A stretch of DNA of 64,000 bases from Deferribacterales bacterium (GCA_050253335.1 JBFWJG010000001.1:1-64000); one strand, 5' to 3'. Positions 4,918-56,897 are shown, numbered from the stretch's first letter. Program-made: numbers and translations. Notes: generated by a model from the letters alone, not told the origin.

Positions 4918-7166
4918 AAAGCAAAAAGAGCCTGCCCCTTGACATAATTTTTCTGCTGAGCATCGCCGCGCTGATTTTTCTGACGCTGTCCATATATTCC
5001 TACTCTCCGTCCGATCCGTCGTTTTCCCACATAATTTTCAGCGACTACGAGCTGAGGGTGAACAACCTTTTCGGGAAAACCGGAGCATATTTTGCCGACT
5101 TGGCTGGAACTTTCTTCGGCTGGGCGGCTTTGTGCATCCCCGTGTTTTTCTCAGGCACAGTCTACAGGCTGTATCTGCTGAGAAGCGGCAGGGAGGAAGG
5201 ACGCTTAGGCGCTGTTTACTCATTCATTGCCATGACGGTTTTTGTTTTCCTGCTTTCTGTTATGTCGGGCTTTTTCGGCGGGCAGGACTTTTTCTTCGAA
5301 TCCCAGTACACAGGGGGCATCTCCGGCAAGGCATCGTCAGATATTCTTGTATCTCTCCTCGGCAAAGCGGGGGGGATGATTGCCGCTTTCTTCCTGCTTG
5401 TCATCTCATTTATGGTTTTCTTCGCCGTGACCCTCAGCGACATGAAACAGGCGTTTCTCCGTGTTAAAACCGGAGTCAGTGAAGGAACAGGGAGCAAAGG
5501 GTTCAGGGGAATGTTCATCAACTCCAAACGCAATGTTGAAACCGCAGGGACGGAGAATACGGACGGCGGAATATATGAGGAGCCTGACGAAGACTATGTT
5601 CCTGTCACCAAACCTCTGGGGGATGAGTACTTCAAACAGGCTGAACCCGAAGAGGAGCAGTCTGTTTTCTCTGCCGCGGAAGAGGCTGAAGAAGAATTAT
5701 CCGAGCCTGCATCATTCCCCGCAAACGGCATAGACATCAAACCCAAGGAAACAGTGGAGCAGACAAGCGTTAAGTACGATGTTCCGTTAAACCTGCTGGA
5801 CAAACCCACGGGCAAGGTGCGCGGCGAATCGGACGAGGAACTGAAGCAGAAGGCCTCCATACTGGAGCAGAAGCTGAAAGACTTCGGAGTTCTGGGGAAA
5901 GTTCGGGAAATACGCCCGGGTCCTGTGGTGACCCTGTTTGAGTTTGAACCCGCACCCGGAATCAAAATAAACAAGATAGCAAACCTCTCTGATGATCTGG
6001 CTCTCGCCATGAGCGCCCTCAGCGTGAGGATAATAGCCCCCATCCCCGGTAAGTCCGTGGTGGGTATAGAGCTTCCCAACGAGAACAGGGAATCGGTGGT
6101 GCTGAGCGAACTGCTCACCTCGGTGAAATTCGCCGAAAGCCAGTCTCCGCTGACATTCGCCATGGGCAAGGATGCTTCCGGCAAGCCGTACATCTCCGAC
6201 CTTACAAAAATGCCCCACCTGCTCATAGCGGGCACAACAGGCAGCGGCAAATCAGTCTCTGTGAACGCCATGATCTGCTCTGTTCTGTATAAGTCATCGC
6301 CTCAGATGGTGAAGTTTGTAATGATCGACCCGAAAATGGTGGAGCTCAGCATATACGAAGGGATACCCCACCTCGCAGCACCGGTTGTGGTGGATGTGCG
6401 CAAGGCGGCTACCGTTCTCAAGAACGTTGTGCAGGAGATGGAATCCCGCTACAGCCTCCTTGCGGAAAGCAAGGTGAGAAATATAGACTCCTACAATCAG
6501 AAGTCAACTGCCGACGGGCATCCGAAAATGCCTTATCTCATTGTGGTTGTGGATGAGTTCGCGGATCTTATGATGGTTGCGGGCAAAGAGGTGGAGCAGT
6601 CGATCATCCGCATAGCACAGATGGCGCGCGCAGTGGGCATACACCTGATTCTCGCCACGCAGAGGCCGTCCGTCAACGTTATAACAGGAATAATCAAGGC
6701 GAACATGCCCGCCAGACTCTCGTTTAAGGTTTCATCAAAGATAGATTCCAGAACAATCATCGATTCCAACGGCGCGGAACTCCTCCTCGGCAGGGGCGAC
6801 AGCCTCTTCATCCCGCCCGGAACAAGCGAAACTGTCCGTGTCCACGGCTGTTTCGTCAGTGACGATGAGGTGGGCAGGATAACGGAACACCTCAAAACCC
6901 TCGGTGAACCGGAATACAACATGGATCTGGTGAAGGATGAGGAAGCGGGATTTGACGAGATAGACGAAGCGGAAATAGACGATAAATACTTCGAGGCGCT
7001 GGAACTGGTCAGACAGAAGGGCTTCGCCTCCATATCCATGATACAGCGATACCTGCGCATAGGCTACAACCGCGCAGCCCGTATAGTCGAGATTATGGAA
7101 CAGAAGGGTATAGTCGCTCCCTCAGACGGCACATCCAAACCCAGAGAAGTGATCAGGAAGGATTAG
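4908..7166 (+). CDS. ftsK: DNA translocase FtsK/SpoIIIE
   Basis: N-terminal TM domain, acidic linker, Walker A GTTGSGKS, VVVDEFAD, LATQRPS, gamma domain QRYLRIGYNRAAR; ATG 4908 chosen over 4815. Confidence 0.95.
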   Translation: MDVKSKKSLPLDIIFLLSIAALIFLTLSIYSYSPSDPSFSHIIFSDYELRVNNLFGKTGAYFADLAGTFFGWAALCIPVFFSGTVYRLYLLRSGREEGRLGAVYSFIAMTVFVFLLSVMSGFFGGQDFFFESQYTGGISGKASSDILVSLLGKAGGMIAAFFLLVISFMVFFAVTLSDMKQAFLRVKTGVSEGTGSKGFRGMFINSKRNVETAGTENTDGGIYEEPDEDYVPVTKPLGDEYFKQAEPEEEQSVFSAAEEAEEELSEPASFPANGIDIKPKETVEQTSVKYDVPLNLLDKPTGKVRGESDEELKQKASILEQKLKDFGVLGKVREIRPGPVVTLFEFEPAPGIKINKIANLSDDLALAMSALSVRIIAPIPGKSVVGIELPNENRESVVLSELLTSVKFAESQSPLTFAMGKDASGKPYISDLTKMPHLLIAGTTGSGKSVSVNAMICSVLYKSSPQMVKFVMIDPKMVELSIYEGIPHLAAPVVVDVRKAATVLKNVVQEMESRYSLLAESKVRNIDSYNQKSTADGHPKMPYLIVVVDEFADLMMVAGKEVEQSIIRIAQMARAVGIHLILATQRPSVNVITGIIKANMPARLSFKVSSKIDSRTIIDSNGAELLLGRGDSLFIPPGTSETVRVHGCFVSDDEVGRITEHLKTLGEPEYNMDLVKDEEAGFDEIDEAEIDDKYFEALELVRQKGFASISMIQRYLRIGYNRAARIVEIMEQKGIVAPSDGTSKPREVIRKD

Positions 7167-7347
7167 CATTCCCATGGAAGGGAATGCGCCGTGCGTAGCG
7201 AAGCCGTGTTCAGCACGGCGCGAGCGTGTGGAATAATCCGACAGGATGTACGGATTATTCCGGTAAGGACAGAACAGAAGGGTATAGTCGCCCCCTCAGA
7301 CGGCACATCCAAACCCAGAGAAGTGATCAGGAAGGATTAGCATTCCC
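7098..7347 (+). repeat. 76-bp direct repeat of the ftsK 3' end (7098-7173 and 7272-7347; period 174 bp)
   Basis: Identical except T7118/C7292 (GCT vs GCC, Ala). Confidence 0.95.
7166..7263 (+). repeat. GGA-loop multi-hairpin interspersed repeat, copy A
   Basis: GCATTCCC-ATGGAA-GGGAATGC; GCCGTGCGTAGCGAAGCC core; GGAATAATCCG-ACAGGATGTA-CGGATTATTCC; homologous to copies at 16.9, 18.9 and 56.7 kb. Confidence 0.9.
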
Positions 7348-7425
7348 TGCATTATGTGCGGATTATTCCGGCAAAAAAAGCGCGGGTTTTTGTATATTTC
7401 TATAGTTTTTTTGAGTGTCGATGCC

Positions 7426-7506
7426 GTCATTCTGAGGCTTCAGCCGAAGAATCTCTCAGTATTTATTGAGATTCTTCACTCCGCCAGCGGATGTCATGCT
7501 GATGAC
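7426..7506. repeat. REP-like GTCATTCTGAG...GAAGAATC element with inverted partner (GAGATTCTTCAC...GATGAC)
   Basis: Same motif at 17016, 18906, 56519; GAAGAATCTC/GAGATTCTTC inverted repeat. Confidence 0.8.
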
Positions 7507-7594
7507 ACAAGTATTTTCATACGGTATTTCTGGCTTTACTGCCCATAACACAATATAATAAAATTACCTGAAAAACTCATTTAAGGAAGGAACT

Positions 7595-16151: not shown

Positions 16152-16881
16152 CAGAAAATGCATTGTGGAATATGACGGGACAGAGTTCTGCGGATGGCAG
16201 GCGCAGAAAGAGGTCCGCACTGTTCAGGCTGAGATAGAAAAAGCACTGGAAACCATGTATAAAACAAAGCTTTTTGCCATCGGCTCCGGAAGGACTGATG
16301 CCGGGGTACATGCTCTTAATCAGGTTTTTAATTTCCGCACGGAGAGCTATATCCCGCTGAACGGCTTTATCATGGGGCTGAACACACTTCTGCCAGGGGA
16401 TATTGCAGTGAAATCCGCCGAGGATGTCCACGAGGATTTTCACTCCCAGAAGTCGGCAGTGAGCAAAACATATATGTACAGGCTTCTCGCGCGGTGGACA
16501 CCTTCCGCTCTGGACAGAAACAGGGCATGGTGGCTGAAGAAAAGGCCGGATGTCGGGCTGATGCGTGAGCTTCTGCGGGCTGTAGAGGGCGAGCATGATT
16601 TCGCCTGTTTCTGCGCCGCGGAGGGGATGAAGGAAAACACGGTAAGAACCATTTACCATACAAAGGTCTATGAAGACGGTGATTACATTAATCTCGAAAT
16701 AAACGGCAGCGGCTTTCTGCATATGATGATACGCATAATAACCGGCACTGTAGTCAGGGGTGCTTTCAGAAGGCAGACGCCAGAGGACATACGGAAGATC
16801 ATTCAGGGAAAAGACAGGAGAAAAGCGGGGATGACCGCCCCCGCCTGCGGACTGTATCTGAAAGAAGTGTTCTATTTGTGA
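16144..16881 (+). CDS. truA: tRNA pseudouridine(38-40) synthase
   Basis: YDGTEFCGWQ, GRTDAGVHA, GEHDF, GFLHMMIR, TAPACGLYL. Confidence 0.96.
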   Translation: MYNRKCIVEYDGTEFCGWQAQKEVRTVQAEIEKALETMYKTKLFAIGSGRTDAGVHALNQVFNFRTESYIPLNGFIMGLNTLLPGDIAVKSAEDVHEDFHSQKSAVSKTYMYRLLARWTPSALDRNRAWWLKKRPDVGLMRELLRAVEGEHDFACFCAAEGMKENTVRTIYHTKVYEDGDYINLEINGSGFLHMMIRIITGTVVRGAFRRQTPEDIRKIIQGKDRRKAGMTAPACGLYLKEVFYL

Positions 16882-17011
16882 TAGTTCAGAAACGGTACAT
16901 CCTGCTGCCTTGATTATCCAAAATTTGCCGTCCATGGAAATTTTGGACACACGCTCGCGCCGTGGTAAACACGGCTTCGCTTCGCACGGCGCAGTTCCGT
17001 CCATGGAACTG
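16874..17011 (-). repeat. GGA-loop multi-hairpin repeat, copy B
   Basis: Minus strand: CAGTTCC-ATGGAC-GGAACTG, GCCGTGCGAAGCGAAGCC, TCCAAAATTT..ATGGAC..AAATTTTGGA, tail CAGGATGTACCGTTTCTGAACTATCA. Confidence 0.88.
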
Positions 17012-17015
17012 TTTG

Positions 17016-17044
17016 TGTCATTCTGAGCGTCAGTGAAGAATCTC
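17016..17044 (+). repeat. REP-like GTCATTCTGAG...GAAGAATC element
   Basis: TGTCATTCTGAGCGTCAGTGAAGAATCTC. Confidence 0.8.
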
Positions 17045-17104
17045 TAAAGTATGGGCAGTTCAAGGATGTACATTTTCCGCACACGCTCACGGGGAGCATT
17101 TATG

Positions 17105-18905: not shown

Positions 18906-18934
18906 TGTCACTCTGAGCGCGGACGAAGAGTCTC
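18906..18934 (+). repeat. REP-like element, compensatory variant (ACTCT/AGAGT)
   Basis: TGTCACTCTGAGCGCGGACGAAGAGTCTC. Confidence 0.72.
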
Positions 18935-18938
18935 AGAA

Positions 18939-19027
18939 CCATAGATGGAGTTGCGCCGTGCGAAGCGGAGGCGAGTTTATCCCGACGCGAGCGTGTGGCT
19001 AAAACTGATAAGATGTACAGTTTTAGC
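18939..19027 (+). repeat. GGA-loop multi-hairpin repeat, copy C (degenerate)
   Basis: TGCGCCGTGCGAAGCG, GCGAGCGTGTG, GCTAAAACTG-ATAAGATGTA-CAGTTTTAGC. Confidence 0.8.
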
Positions 19028-19069
19028 TATTAAGTTGACTTTCATCCATCATTAACCTATATCTGACAG

Positions 19070-37414: not shown

Positions 37415-38272
37415 ATGAAGAAAAACATAGGGAAAATAACAATAAAGATAATAATGGTTCTGCTGATCCTCGGTCTGGTCGGCAGGGCGGTTTATGTTCT
37501 CAGCGGAGCGGAAGGCGGTCATCTTCCGGAAAACACCGTGGCGGAGCTTTCAATAACCGGAATAATTTACGAGGCTGATTCTGTTATAGAAACCCTTGAG
37601 GAGCTTTCCAAGAACGAGAAGGTCAAGGGGATAATACTCAGGGTGAACAGCCCGGGCGGAGTGATTACGCCGACCAAGGAAATTTTCGACTATATCCAGA
37701 CAATCAACAAGCCTGTCTATGCCTCCATGGAGAGCGTGGCGGCCTCCGGCGGATATTACGTTTCCGCGGCGTGCGACCGCATATTTGCCATGCCGACCAC
37801 GATTACGGGGAGCATAGGCGTCATCATGCAGCTTTCAAACTATGAAAAACTCATGAACACCATAGGCATAAAAAACTTTGCCCTGAAAAGCGGCGAGTTT
37901 AAGGATATAGGTTCGCCTGACAGGGAAATGACGGATGCGGAGAGGGATATCCTCATGAGCACTGTTATGGATATGTACGAACAGTTTATAGAGGACATCC
38001 AGAAGCGCAGAAACATGGATGAGGCTGTTCTCCGCGCACAGGCGGACGGCAGGGTCTTCACGGGGAAGCGCGCCTTTGAGATGGGTTTTGTGGACAACCT
38101 CGGCAGCAGAAGAGACGCCTTCGAGGAGATGAAGAACGAACTCAGGCTTGAGAATGTCGAGCTGAAAAATTTTGATAAAAAGCTTACCGTCTGGGACAAG
38201 TTCTTCGGCAGGGTCGAGGGGCTCAACCTCGGGGGCGGGGCTCATTTCATGTATCTGTACAAAGGGTACTGA
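37415..38272 (+). CDS. sppA: Signal peptide peptidase SppA (S49, 36K type)
   Basis: RVNSPGG, AASGGYY, TGSIGV, KSGEFKD, DGRVFTG. Confidence 0.92.
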   Translation: MKKNIGKITIKIIMVLLILGLVGRAVYVLSGAEGGHLPENTVAELSITGIIYEADSVIETLEELSKNEKVKGIILRVNSPGGVITPTKEIFDYIQTINKPVYASMESVAASGGYYVSAACDRIFAMPTTITGSIGVIMQLSNYEKLMNTIGIKNFALKSGEFKDIGSPDREMTDAERDILMSTVMDMYEQFIEDIQKRRNMDEAVLRAQADGRVFTGKRAFEMGFVDNLGSRRDAFEEMKNELRLENVELKNFDKKLTVWDKFFGRVEGLNLGGGAHFMYLYKGY

Positions 38273-49838: not shown

Positions 49839-50049
49839 TCGGCTTAAATCAGGTCTTTTTCTGTTGCCGTTTTTCACCGCCTCTATTATCTTAACGCTTG
49901 CGCGCGCATTTCGCGAGAATGTGGTTTTGCTGAAAATCATTCTCCGCTGTTCTGTGTGTCCTCCGTGCAGCCGGACCTTGTTTATCAGGGTGCGGGCGTG
50001 TATGGAAATTCTCATGGCTGAAGAATTTTTTTGTTAATGAAGGTGCATT

Positions 50050-56255: not shown

Positions 56256-56308
56256 AAAAATAAAGTCTCTGCTTCATTTGTGAAGCAGGTCAAAGTTTTT
56301 AAGGTTTT

Positions 56309-56346
56309 TTGGGGAAGCTTTTTTTAAAAGTTTCCCCAATTTTTTT
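56309..56346 (+). terminator. Putative terminator after pgk
   Basis: TTGGGGAAGCTTTT/AAAAGTTTCCCCAA hairpin followed by T7. Confidence 0.65.
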
Positions 56347-56347
56347 G

Positions 56348-56384
56348 GCTTAATTTCTGATAGTTCGGAAGCGGTACGTCCTGT
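56348..56384 (-). repeat. Truncated 3' tail of GGA-loop repeat
   Basis: GCTTAATTTCTGATAGTTCGGAAGCGGTACGTCCTGT matches 56766-56802 with 2 mismatches. Confidence 0.85.
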
Positions 56385-56390
56385 TATGAT

Positions 56391-56485
56391 AAATCCCCCT
56401 CTTATCCCCCTTTTATAAAGGGGGAGGTTATTTCAGATAAACGAAAAACACCCTCCTTTTGCAAAAGGAGGGCAAGGGAGGATTT
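56391..56485. repeat. Inverted pair of CCCCCTT/AAGGGGG-type palindromes (REP-like)
   Basis: TCCCCCTTT..AAAGGGGGA and CCCTCCTTTTGCAAAAGGAGGG hairpins with outer AAATCC/GGATTT. Confidence 0.7.
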
Positions 56486-56518
56486 CTGCCGATAGGTATG
56501 TCTTTTTAATTGCTGAAA

Positions 56519-56599
56519 TGTCTTTCTGAGCGTCAGCGAAGAATCATCGGACGACTGCCTGCATATGAGATCCTTCACCCCTTTAGGGTTCAGGATGAC
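56519..56599. repeat. REP-like GTC(A/T)TTCTGAG...GAAGAATC element with inverted partner
   Basis: TGTCTTTCTGAGCGTCAGCGAAGAATC ... GAGATCCTTCAC...TTCAGGATGAC. Confidence 0.78.
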
Positions 56600-56612: not shown

Positions 56613-56897
56613 TTACTTTCCGCCGCTGACCTTGGTTGATTTCTGATAGTTCGGAAGCGGTACGTCCTGTCCGTTTCTTTACACGCTCACGCCTTGCAGA
56701 GCAAGGCTTCGCTTCGCACGGCGCATTCCCATCCATGGGAGTGTTTACTTTCCGCCGCTGACCTTGCTTAATTTCTGATAGTTCAGAAACGGTACGTCCT
56801 GTCCGTTTCTTCACACGCTCGCGCCTTGCAGAGCAAGGCTTCGCTCCGCACGGCGCACTCCCATCCATGGGAGTGTTTATTTCCCGCCGCTGACCTT
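56613..56897 (-). repeat. 132-bp tandem repeat: two GGA-loop elements (copies D1/D2) plus three copies of the PilZ gene 3' end
   Basis: Stop-codon triplets at 56613, 56745, 56877; CACTCCC-ATGGAT-GGGA(G/A)TG and AGAAACGG-ACAGGACGTA-CCG(T/C)TTC hairpins. Confidence 0.93.

Follow-up and report, generated by a model that had tools for sequence, protein, structure and literature searches.

What is a hairpin repeat with CsrA-type loops doing behind ftsK, and why does the end of that gene stand on both sides of it? The locus lies in a 64,000-nt stretch of DNA from a Deferribacterales bacterium (GCA_050253335.1 JBFWJG010000001.1:1-64000), the whole of which we call the window. A sequence-only reading had noticed an interspersed repeat there, with three hairpins and GGA loops of the kind recognized by CsrA, and had proposed either a CsrA sponge or stability element in 3' untranslated regions (3' UTRs) or a non-autonomous mobile unit of the HUH/REP type. 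We found that the repeat is a real, uncatalogued, genus-level family. It is likely to be a non-autonomous mobile element that carries CsrA-type loops and makes long target duplications of variable length, because these duplications are specific to the family, orthologous sites occur both filled and empty, and the 3' end is fixed.

At the ftsK locus, on the plus strand, the last 69 nt of the gene, including its stop codon (7098 to 7166), lead into copy A of the repeat, whose match to the family profile spans 7163 to 7275. Hairpin 1 (7167 to 7186) has a 7-bp stem and an ATGGAA loop. The conserved core (7187 to 7229) contains hairpin 2 (7203 to 7219), to which two G-C pairs and, by prediction, tandem G.A pairs are added, and the GCGAGCGTGT arm. 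Hairpin 3 (7230 to 7263) has a long stem with one 3' bulge and an AGGAT loop closed by AC/GT, and it is followed by a 3' tail (7264 to 7271) that forms the right breakpoint of a duplication. Directly past this tail, the 3' end of ftsK is repeated with 99% identity and runs into the 5' arm of another hairpin 1 (7272 to 7347). The last 69 nt of ftsK plus the hairpin-1 arm, at 7098 to 7173, recur in this way at 7272 to 7347, which the sequence-only reading had not mentioned. The second element (7341 to 7372) has an internal deletion that fuses its hairpin-1 5' arm to its hairpin-3 3' arm. We refer to the copied stretch as T and to the arrangement of target, element, and target as T-E-T. The ftsK site is empty in genomes G028 and G024 and filled in the genome of the window (G000), G027, and G029. 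The right end is common to the three filled sites; the left end takes in 69 nt of ftsK in G000 versus about 6 nt in G027 and G029.

The source genome is very likely a Geovibrio, judging from window proteins that cluster at 90% with Geovibrio proteins, and the genus genomes that we compared are G000, G027, G028, and G029. Genes were called with our own open reading frame scorer (2,389 in G000 and 2,442 in 2.8 Mb of the 3.0 Mb of G029). A family profile built on 126 seed copies gave 188 matches in G000 and 0 in the reversed genome, which served as the control. Copies of at least 30 bits numbered 161 and were grouped into 100 loci, 45 of which are same-strand arrays. A strict core pattern matched 111 times in G000, 112 in G027, 84 in G028, and 258 in G029. 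It matched only 2 and 3 times in two sister-genus genomes and not at all in 62 of 68 genomes of the phylum; CsrA is encoded in 60 of the 68. A covariance model scan was concordant, with only single or double weak matches outside the genus. Among the matches listed from a wider genome collection, at least 23 lay outside the family, all without the outer hairpins, and we took these as chance. There were 0 pattern matches in viral contigs, and carriage by phage is therefore not supported. In the literature outside subscription journals, we found no description of the family or of such a footprint in bacteria. A second subfamily, with 17 cores in G000, keeps the outer loops but has a core of greater length; its sites there include C8:47018, C21:29946, C23, C32, C41, and C121. 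One copy of this subfamily stands at the PilZ-gene site in G028, where its T starts identically to that of the window-type element.

We then defined clean first elements as those in which the hairpin-1 loop is intact and the 130 nt upstream contain no remnants (G028 comprised 44 loci). The element's own upstream flank was copied after it at 12 of 37 such loci in G000, 19 of 56 in G029, and 8 of 14 in G028, for a total of 39 of 107 that includes some loci more than once, as orthologues in different genomes. The null, obtained with another locus's flank, was 0.7 to 1.4%. T measured 14 to 89 nt, starting that far before hairpin 1, and the right break lay 17 to 30 nt past the hairpin-3 loop in 27 of the 39 cases, which points to a fixed 3' end. 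The duplicated flanks shared no target motif beyond a weak GA start. In an independent test, we looked for at least 13 nt of a gene's coding end recurring within every spacer of 80 to 900 nt. Such a copy was present in 47 of 296 element-bearing spacer sides (24 of 125 plus 23 of 171), compared with 0 of 114 sides with other repeats only and 0 of 1,033 sides without repeats. Given 0 of these 114 sides and 0 of 33 CGTC-type sites, we reject the idea that repeats here duplicate their flanks in general. At L212 and G000:C47, the downstream copy of the gene end tracks each genome's own version of the gene, and the copy in G028 differs from the gene at third codon positions only.

The ends of the duplications were mixed. 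Among 29 junction loci, 15 end in bare T, 5 in T running into hairpin 1, and 9 in element, and thus an account of them requires both target duplication with recombination and re-duplication anchored at the tail (or later deletion). Arrays are on the same strand, and their repeating unit is T plus the element. Elements also interrupt gene starts, with the start duplicated around them, which favors a one-step insertion with a long variable target duplication. Of the loci that could be tested, 3 of 40 in G029 and 2 of 26 in G000 were true cases of this; a third match in G000 lay inside the element itself. At L186 in G028, the element lies within the 5' end of a gene, and a 53-nt T that holds the ribosome site and ten codons ends at the base of hairpin 1; the orthologous site is cleanly empty in G000. 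The overlap of gatC and gatA occurs once in G023 and G026, whereas each of the four genus genomes has it twice, on either side of an insert. We also considered whether the stems were copied from the target, which is not so at L186 and is possible at gatC/gatA. Counts of 2 that might have pointed to a donor locus with 5' transduction prove nothing. Elsewhere, on the minus strand of G000:C4 at about 37900 to 37990, what remains of hairpin 1 and the core is joined in frame with the downstream gene's start and gives this gene a repeat-derived N terminus. We take this gene to be murG-like from its N-terminal motif. The G029 counterpart has a full element with a duplicated start.

Comparison of spacers between genomes gave further filled and empty sites. 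Among 1,769 spacers syntenic between G000 and G029, 53 were occupied in both, 40 in G029 only, and 8 in G000 only; the shared sites had the same orientation in 52 of 53 cases over about 8% protein divergence. The filled and empty sites and the flanking duplications together support the earlier proposal of a non-autonomous mobile unit.

The unit itself is 105 nt long, with three hairpins in series and a fixed geometry. The folding z score was -2.7 or lower in four of the five window copies (-5.45 for copy A, which folds into the three hairpins) and -1.08 in the fifth. For pairing statistics we used one copy per locus, selected by loop or length only. Watson-Crick pairing in G000 and G029, respectively, was 0.97 and 0.93 for hairpin 1 (63 and 87 loci; shuffled arms, 0.64 and 0.63), 0.98 and 0.96 for hairpin 2 (81 and 118 loci; shuffled arms, 0.49 and 0.48), and 0.91 and 0.87 for hairpin 3 (58 and 81 loci; shuffled arms, 0.47 and 0.46). 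In an alignment of 43 copies, which are related and were picked for intact loops and standard length, 93.7% of cells pair and both sides change in 25 of 28 pairs. This was matched by 0 of 500 shuffles, and the stems covary as had been proposed. Stem length is fixed and stem sequence is free. The stems had been described as wholly different between copies yet paired. Pairing is indeed kept, and the stems covary, but they are drawn from a repertoire (33 distinct hairpin-1 arms at 68 loci and 20 hairpin-2 arms at 81 loci), copies A and B share their hairpin-2 stem, and the copies at 56 kb are a 132-nt tandem duplicate. The three hairpins assort almost independently (2 of 6 tests at P < 0.05), and among 48 orthologous loci, 19, 19, and 22 have unlike versions of hairpins 1, 2, and 3. 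This suggests that hairpins are exchanged between copies through the conserved core.

In contrast to the stems, the loops are constrained. At 68 loci, the hairpin-1 loop reads A in 68, a free position, G in 64, G in 67, A in 67, and a second free position; that is, positions 1, 3, 4, and 5 are fixed at 94 to 100%, and positions 2 and 6 are free. The loops are ANGGAN or AGGAN, with a purine at position 2 in 16 of 68 and at position 6 in 23 of 68. Hairpin 3 has two distinct loop types, both with the GGA motif, and the second subfamily retains this motif too. The commonest hairpin-3 top, ACAGGATGT (38 of 83), is near RUACARGGAUGU, which the available text of PMC7652899 gives as the consensus of the CsrA site from SELEX (systematic ligand evolution through exponential enrichment). 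In the genome, csrA lies directly behind fliW, and the encoded CsrA aligns with solved CsrA/RsmE chains. The outer loops are predicted to bind CsrA on RNA. Pairing, loop conservation, and likeness to the SELEX consensus all support the earlier view of a selected single-stranded structure with CsrA-type loops.

Every copy had been said to be sense to an upstream gene. This holds in the window and not genome-wide, where the GGA strand runs in the same sense as the upstream gene at 76 of the 90 loci of G000 that could be scored (10 contig-end loci were dropped) and 105 of 134 loci in G029. At 78 to 84%, sense orientation is preferred behind stop codons. Loci with copies on both strands numbered 0 of 100 in G000 and 2 of 134 in G029. 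In G029, 91 of 134 loci are on the leading strand, and in lagging-strand operons the element follows gene orientation in 12 of 19. Occupancy of spacers in that genome was 40 loci in 111 convergent, 84 in 497 tandem, and 10 in 240 divergent spacers, and 44 of the 105 sense loci start no more than 25 nt past the stop codon. We found that hairpin-1 loops were all intact at 61 of 75 sense loci versus 23 of 23 other loci in G029 (P = 0.036) and at 42 of 46 versus 13 of 14 in G000; hairpins 2 and 3 showed no difference in intactness. Had the host maintained the loops for binding in 3' UTRs, sense copies would be expected to be in better condition than the others; they are not, which favors loops that are part of the propagating unit. 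Upstream genes did not differ in codon bias, a crude proxy for expression that rests here on 17 reference genes (0.618 versus 0.607; P = 0.22). Contigs of a relative in two compost metatranscriptomes from one study pile up on the repeats; as contigs give no strand or level, we did not use them as evidence.

We searched the genomes for an enzyme that might move the element. Y1_Tnp (PF01797, RAYT) was found in 0 of 4 genus genomes, and IS110 and LigD were each found in 0 of 5 genomes. Cas1 occurs in 2 of 4 and DUF559 in 2 of 4 genus genomes. RVT_1 occurs in 1 of 4, as a solitary 500-amino-acid reverse transcriptase in G028 (L231:1219-2721) that falls under every curated cutoff and is not beside an element. 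GIY-YIG is present only as UvrC, save for one small gene in G027 that is flanked by another repeat. A RAYT/TnpA or GIY-YIG gene flanked by copies, which the sequence-only reading had advised looking for, did not appear. There was no transposase among 129 of the 258 neighboring genes in G029 (those of at most 330 amino acids that do not cross a boundary of the retrieved sequence, with six orthologues of window genes left out), and no candidate among lineage-specific neighbors was flanked by the element on both sides. Two further candidates were rejected: a GIY-YIG-like gene near L190, which has a tRNA before it, and a toxin-antitoxin-like pair close to two loci, which is not flanked on both sides. 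Separately, G024 has a retron-like reverse transcriptase (L232:1026-2262) with a small helix-turn-helix-like gene upstream.

According to our model of a mobile element, the 3' tail would be joined at a nick, or would prime there, and the unit would then be copied. A second nick 14 to 89 nt away, followed by gap filling, would yield T-E-T in one step. Recombination between T copies would give (T-E)n-T arrays or loss of the element, tail-anchored copying in cis would produce tandem duplications whose left ends are new, as seen behind ftsK, and recombination through the conserved core would swap hairpins between copies. CsrA on the loops might protect the RNA, with titration of CsrA a side effect or a later co-option. 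We hold an RNA template to be slightly likelier than single-stranded DNA, each accounting for a substantial share of the likelihood given to the model, and the enzyme may be lost, transient, or a host protein. A bolder version, in which a 105-nt RNA coated by CsrA on its outer loops is copied into transcribed gene ends by target priming with no resident dedicated enzyme, would make this a bacterial element like the short interspersed nuclear elements (SINEs). We regard this version as rather unlikely. If it is true, the long variable target duplications would allow harmless entry into overlapping essential genes.

Several observations weigh against a mobile element. Although some syntenic spacers look empty, several of them retain remnants of the element and represent losses. 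Moreover, G000 has 61 occupied syntenic spacers, and 53 of them are filled in G029 too, so most insertions are old; with most insertions predating the split of the two genomes, the lasting conservation of the loops may come from host selection. The count of copied flanks includes orthologues, as stated above. Fourteen of the 29 junction loci can be tandem duplications of an existing copy or later deletions, and T-E-T itself can arise by duplication plus deletion. The gatC/gatA example is not clean, as the insert there is of a different repeat family in three of the four genomes. Stems are almost purely Watson-Crick, with G.T versus A.C at only 36 to 20 (P = 0.044; the loci are not independent). 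Finally, no cognate enzyme tracks with the family among RVT_1, Y1_Tnp, GIY-YIG, DUF559, Cas1, LigD, and IS110, in a search that did not include Y2, Rep, relaxase HUH families, or TnpB.

As a rival, the repeat could be a distributed CsrA sponge or 3'-end stabilizer under host selection, in which about 100 transcripts, each with at least two CsrA sites, would buffer CsrA beside FliW and the spread and flank duplications would come from polymerase slippage at hairpins. The loops fit the SELEX consensus and vary only where it permits, csrA adjoins fliW, most loci are sense (76 of 90 and 105 of 134), convergent spacers are filled more often than divergent ones (40 of 111 and 10 of 240), and 52 of 53 shared sites keep their orientation over about 8% protein divergence. 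We nevertheless consider such a sponge improbable. Loops are no less intact at non-sense loci, the codon bias of upstream genes does not differ (0.618 versus 0.607, P = 0.22), the pattern is missing from 62 of 68 phylum genomes though 60 have CsrA, and two-step slippage does not easily yield insertions into gene starts in which a duplication restores the gene. The 3'-UTR sponge proposed earlier is weakened in its pure form by the intact loops at non-sense loci, by the codon-bias result, and by the 16 to 22% of loci that are not sense.

The near-pure Watson-Crick stems would suit a single-stranded DNA element of the REPIN type whose RAYT/HUH transposase has since been lost from the genus, as would the 91 of 134 loci on the leading strand, the tandem clusters of 5' flank and element that the accessible part of PMC3116915 describes for REPINs, and the likewise patchy nucleases of other Geovibrio repeat families. 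Y1_Tnp in 0 of 4 genus genomes, the lack of a GTAG/CGTC tag or terminal palindrome, and the near absence of mixed-strand loci (0 of 100 and 2 of 134) make this quite unlikely, and loops of an RNA-protein type would go unexplained. To our knowledge, peel-and-paste transposition is not expected to duplicate its target. The HUH/REP form of the earlier proposal was not borne out, given the Y1 transposase result and the lack of inverted doublets. Functionless repeats are a further reading, with palindromes perfected by template switching, loops maintained by gene conversion, and a coincidental likeness to CsrA sites. In its favor, hairpin versions are unlike at 19 to 22 of 48 orthologous loci and assort almost independently, so that conversion is likely active, and decayed copies exist (copy C and the one at 49976). 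The pattern of loop positions at 68 loci, with 1, 3, 4, and 5 fixed at 94 to 100% and 2 and 6 free, argues against this, as do the same motif in two hairpin-3 loop types and the second subfamily and the stems of fixed length and free sequence; we judge it highly unlikely that the repeats are functionless.

The remaining copies in the window fit the family. All five near-full copies reported earlier are present, at 77 to 95 bits against the family profile. Copy B (16904 to 17014, minus strand) has a third hairpin of the CC-ATGGAC-GG type, and copy C (18934 to 19035, plus strand) has both outer loops decayed, as had been claimed. The reported fragments are also present, at 7341 to 7372, 16874 to 16904, about 17050 to 17090, and 56348 to 56384. 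However, position 16874, under which copy B had been listed, is not that copy's own end and belongs to an extra hairpin-3 3' half that abuts it (16874 to 16904, minus strand). Upstream of copy B, the fragment at 17050 to 17090 (minus strand) consists of GTGAGCGTGT and a hairpin-3 5' arm. A decayed copy of 17 bits lies at 49976 to 50032 (plus strand), and the orthologous G029 spacer holds a better-kept one. On the minus strand near 56 kb, copies D (56772 to 56878) and E (56644 to 56746) are the first and second units of a 132-nt tandem array whose T, the 3' end of a PilZ-domain gene (56877 to 56897), occurs again at 56745 to 56765 and 56613 to 56633. The 3' end of a third unit lies at 56348 to 56384 (minus strand), its middle replaced by other repeat families.

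Other repeats share these spacers. CGTC-type palindromic repeats lie in the window at 7425 to 7508, 17016 to 17042, 18906 to 18932, and 56519 to 56590, and repeats of this family border small GIY-YIG genes in G027, G025, and G026; the available part of PMC3733652 reports no dedicated enzyme for CGTC repeats. Poly-C/poly-G palindromes occur at 56390 to 56490 and at L265:1450-2400; they border a DUF559 gene, with an array of them behind it in G029. The palindrome families of the GIY-YIG and DUF559 genes crowd element-bearing spacers (40 of 133 versus 16 of 719 and 19 of 133 versus 10 of 719, respectively) and show no flank copy on their own. A further hairpin family with long A and T runs (56290 to 56345) often follows the GGA element and replaces its middle at gatC/gatA in three genomes.

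If the footprint arises in one step, it would point to a way of copying that neither REPINs nor MITEs (miniature inverted-repeat transposable elements) use, and if the loops bind CsrA, the host, which is of the FliW type, would have about 300 extra RNA sites. SINEs are moved by target-primed reverse transcription and have a fixed 3' end, a variable target duplication, and occasional 5' truncation. The Geovibrio repeat resembles them in its fixed 3' end with a short tail, variable-length target duplication, occasional 5' truncation, and lack of coding capacity. Unlike SINEs, it has a bacterial host and no poly(A), and no partner reverse transcriptase was found in the genus genomes. An Rfam search with gathering and E-value thresholds gave nothing meaningful, and by our tests the repeat is not RF01731, a REPIN, or a MITE. 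The consensus of 43 copies has no GTAG/CGTC tag, terminal palindrome, or inverted ends.

Small intergenic hairpin repeats without their own enzyme offer partial parallels. In the part of Bertels and Rainey (2011, PMC3116915) available, REPIN clusters repeat in tandem a unit made up of a 5' flank, the element, and a short 3' flank, and the Geovibrio repeat is likewise small, non-autonomous, and clustered with its 5' flank. It differs from REPINs as portrayed in the accessible text of PMC3733652 in having no tag, inverted doublet, or RAYT and in having long variable target copies and CsrA-type loops. In the portion of a review consulted (PMC3184786), bcr1 of the Bacillus cereus group has 5-bp direct repeats and MITEs have terminal inverted repeats. 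The Geovibrio repeat, like bcr1 as described there, is lineage restricted and structured, with compensatory changes, non-conserved positions, and flanking direct repeats, but these are 14 to 89 nt long and there are no inverted ends. We ruled out a MITE because terminal inverted repeats are lacking and T is not short or fixed. Small RNAs of the CsrB/RsmZ type carry GGA in the loops of hairpins, with AC/GU or C/G as the closure, according to the same part of PMC7652899. They share with our repeat GGA hairpin loops near the SELEX consensus and an encoded CsrA; in contrast, they have many sites in one gene, and the Geovibrio repeat has two sites per unit at about 100 loci, long stable stems, and a host with FliW.

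As far as the available portions of PMC2864571, PMC4333381, and bioRxiv 10.64898/2026.09.22.753630 describe it, TwoAYGGAY (RF01731) is the closest known system in idea: a dispersed intergenic repeat with two CsrA-type GGA loops and tandem G.A pairs. Our repeat shares these traits and the large differences in copy number. However, TwoAYGGAY has two adjacent hairpins on a common basal stem, and here a third hairpin stands between the two GGA hairpins; its copies, in the Pseudomonas form described, are mostly divergent doublets, and Geovibrio arrays are on the same strand. As for its AYGGAY loops, comparison with the ANGGAN or AGGAN loops here points neither way. RF01731 itself was rejected, with a best score of 22.4 bits on a lone loop-hairpin fragment against a gathering cutoff of 43 and none on an array. 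A circularly permuted TwoAYGGAY was rejected as well, since a natural array that places hairpin 3 next to hairpin 1 was unmatched by RF01731 and no array scored genome-wide. Conversely, 30 RF01731 loci from Pseudomonadota did not match the Geovibrio profile, and they had no comparable flank copy (4 of 30 were bracketed, three by one shared short repeat). The sections of the 2026 preprint at hand (bioRxiv 10.64898/2026.09.22.753630) note a proposed sponge role for TwoAYGGAY and treat its mobile-like spread as unexplained. For that question of how CsrA-type hairpin repeats spread, the Geovibrio family provides a concrete footprint that can be put to the test: its 3' end is fixed, its target copies are long and variable, its sites are found both filled and empty across four genomes, and it has relatives that can be cultured.

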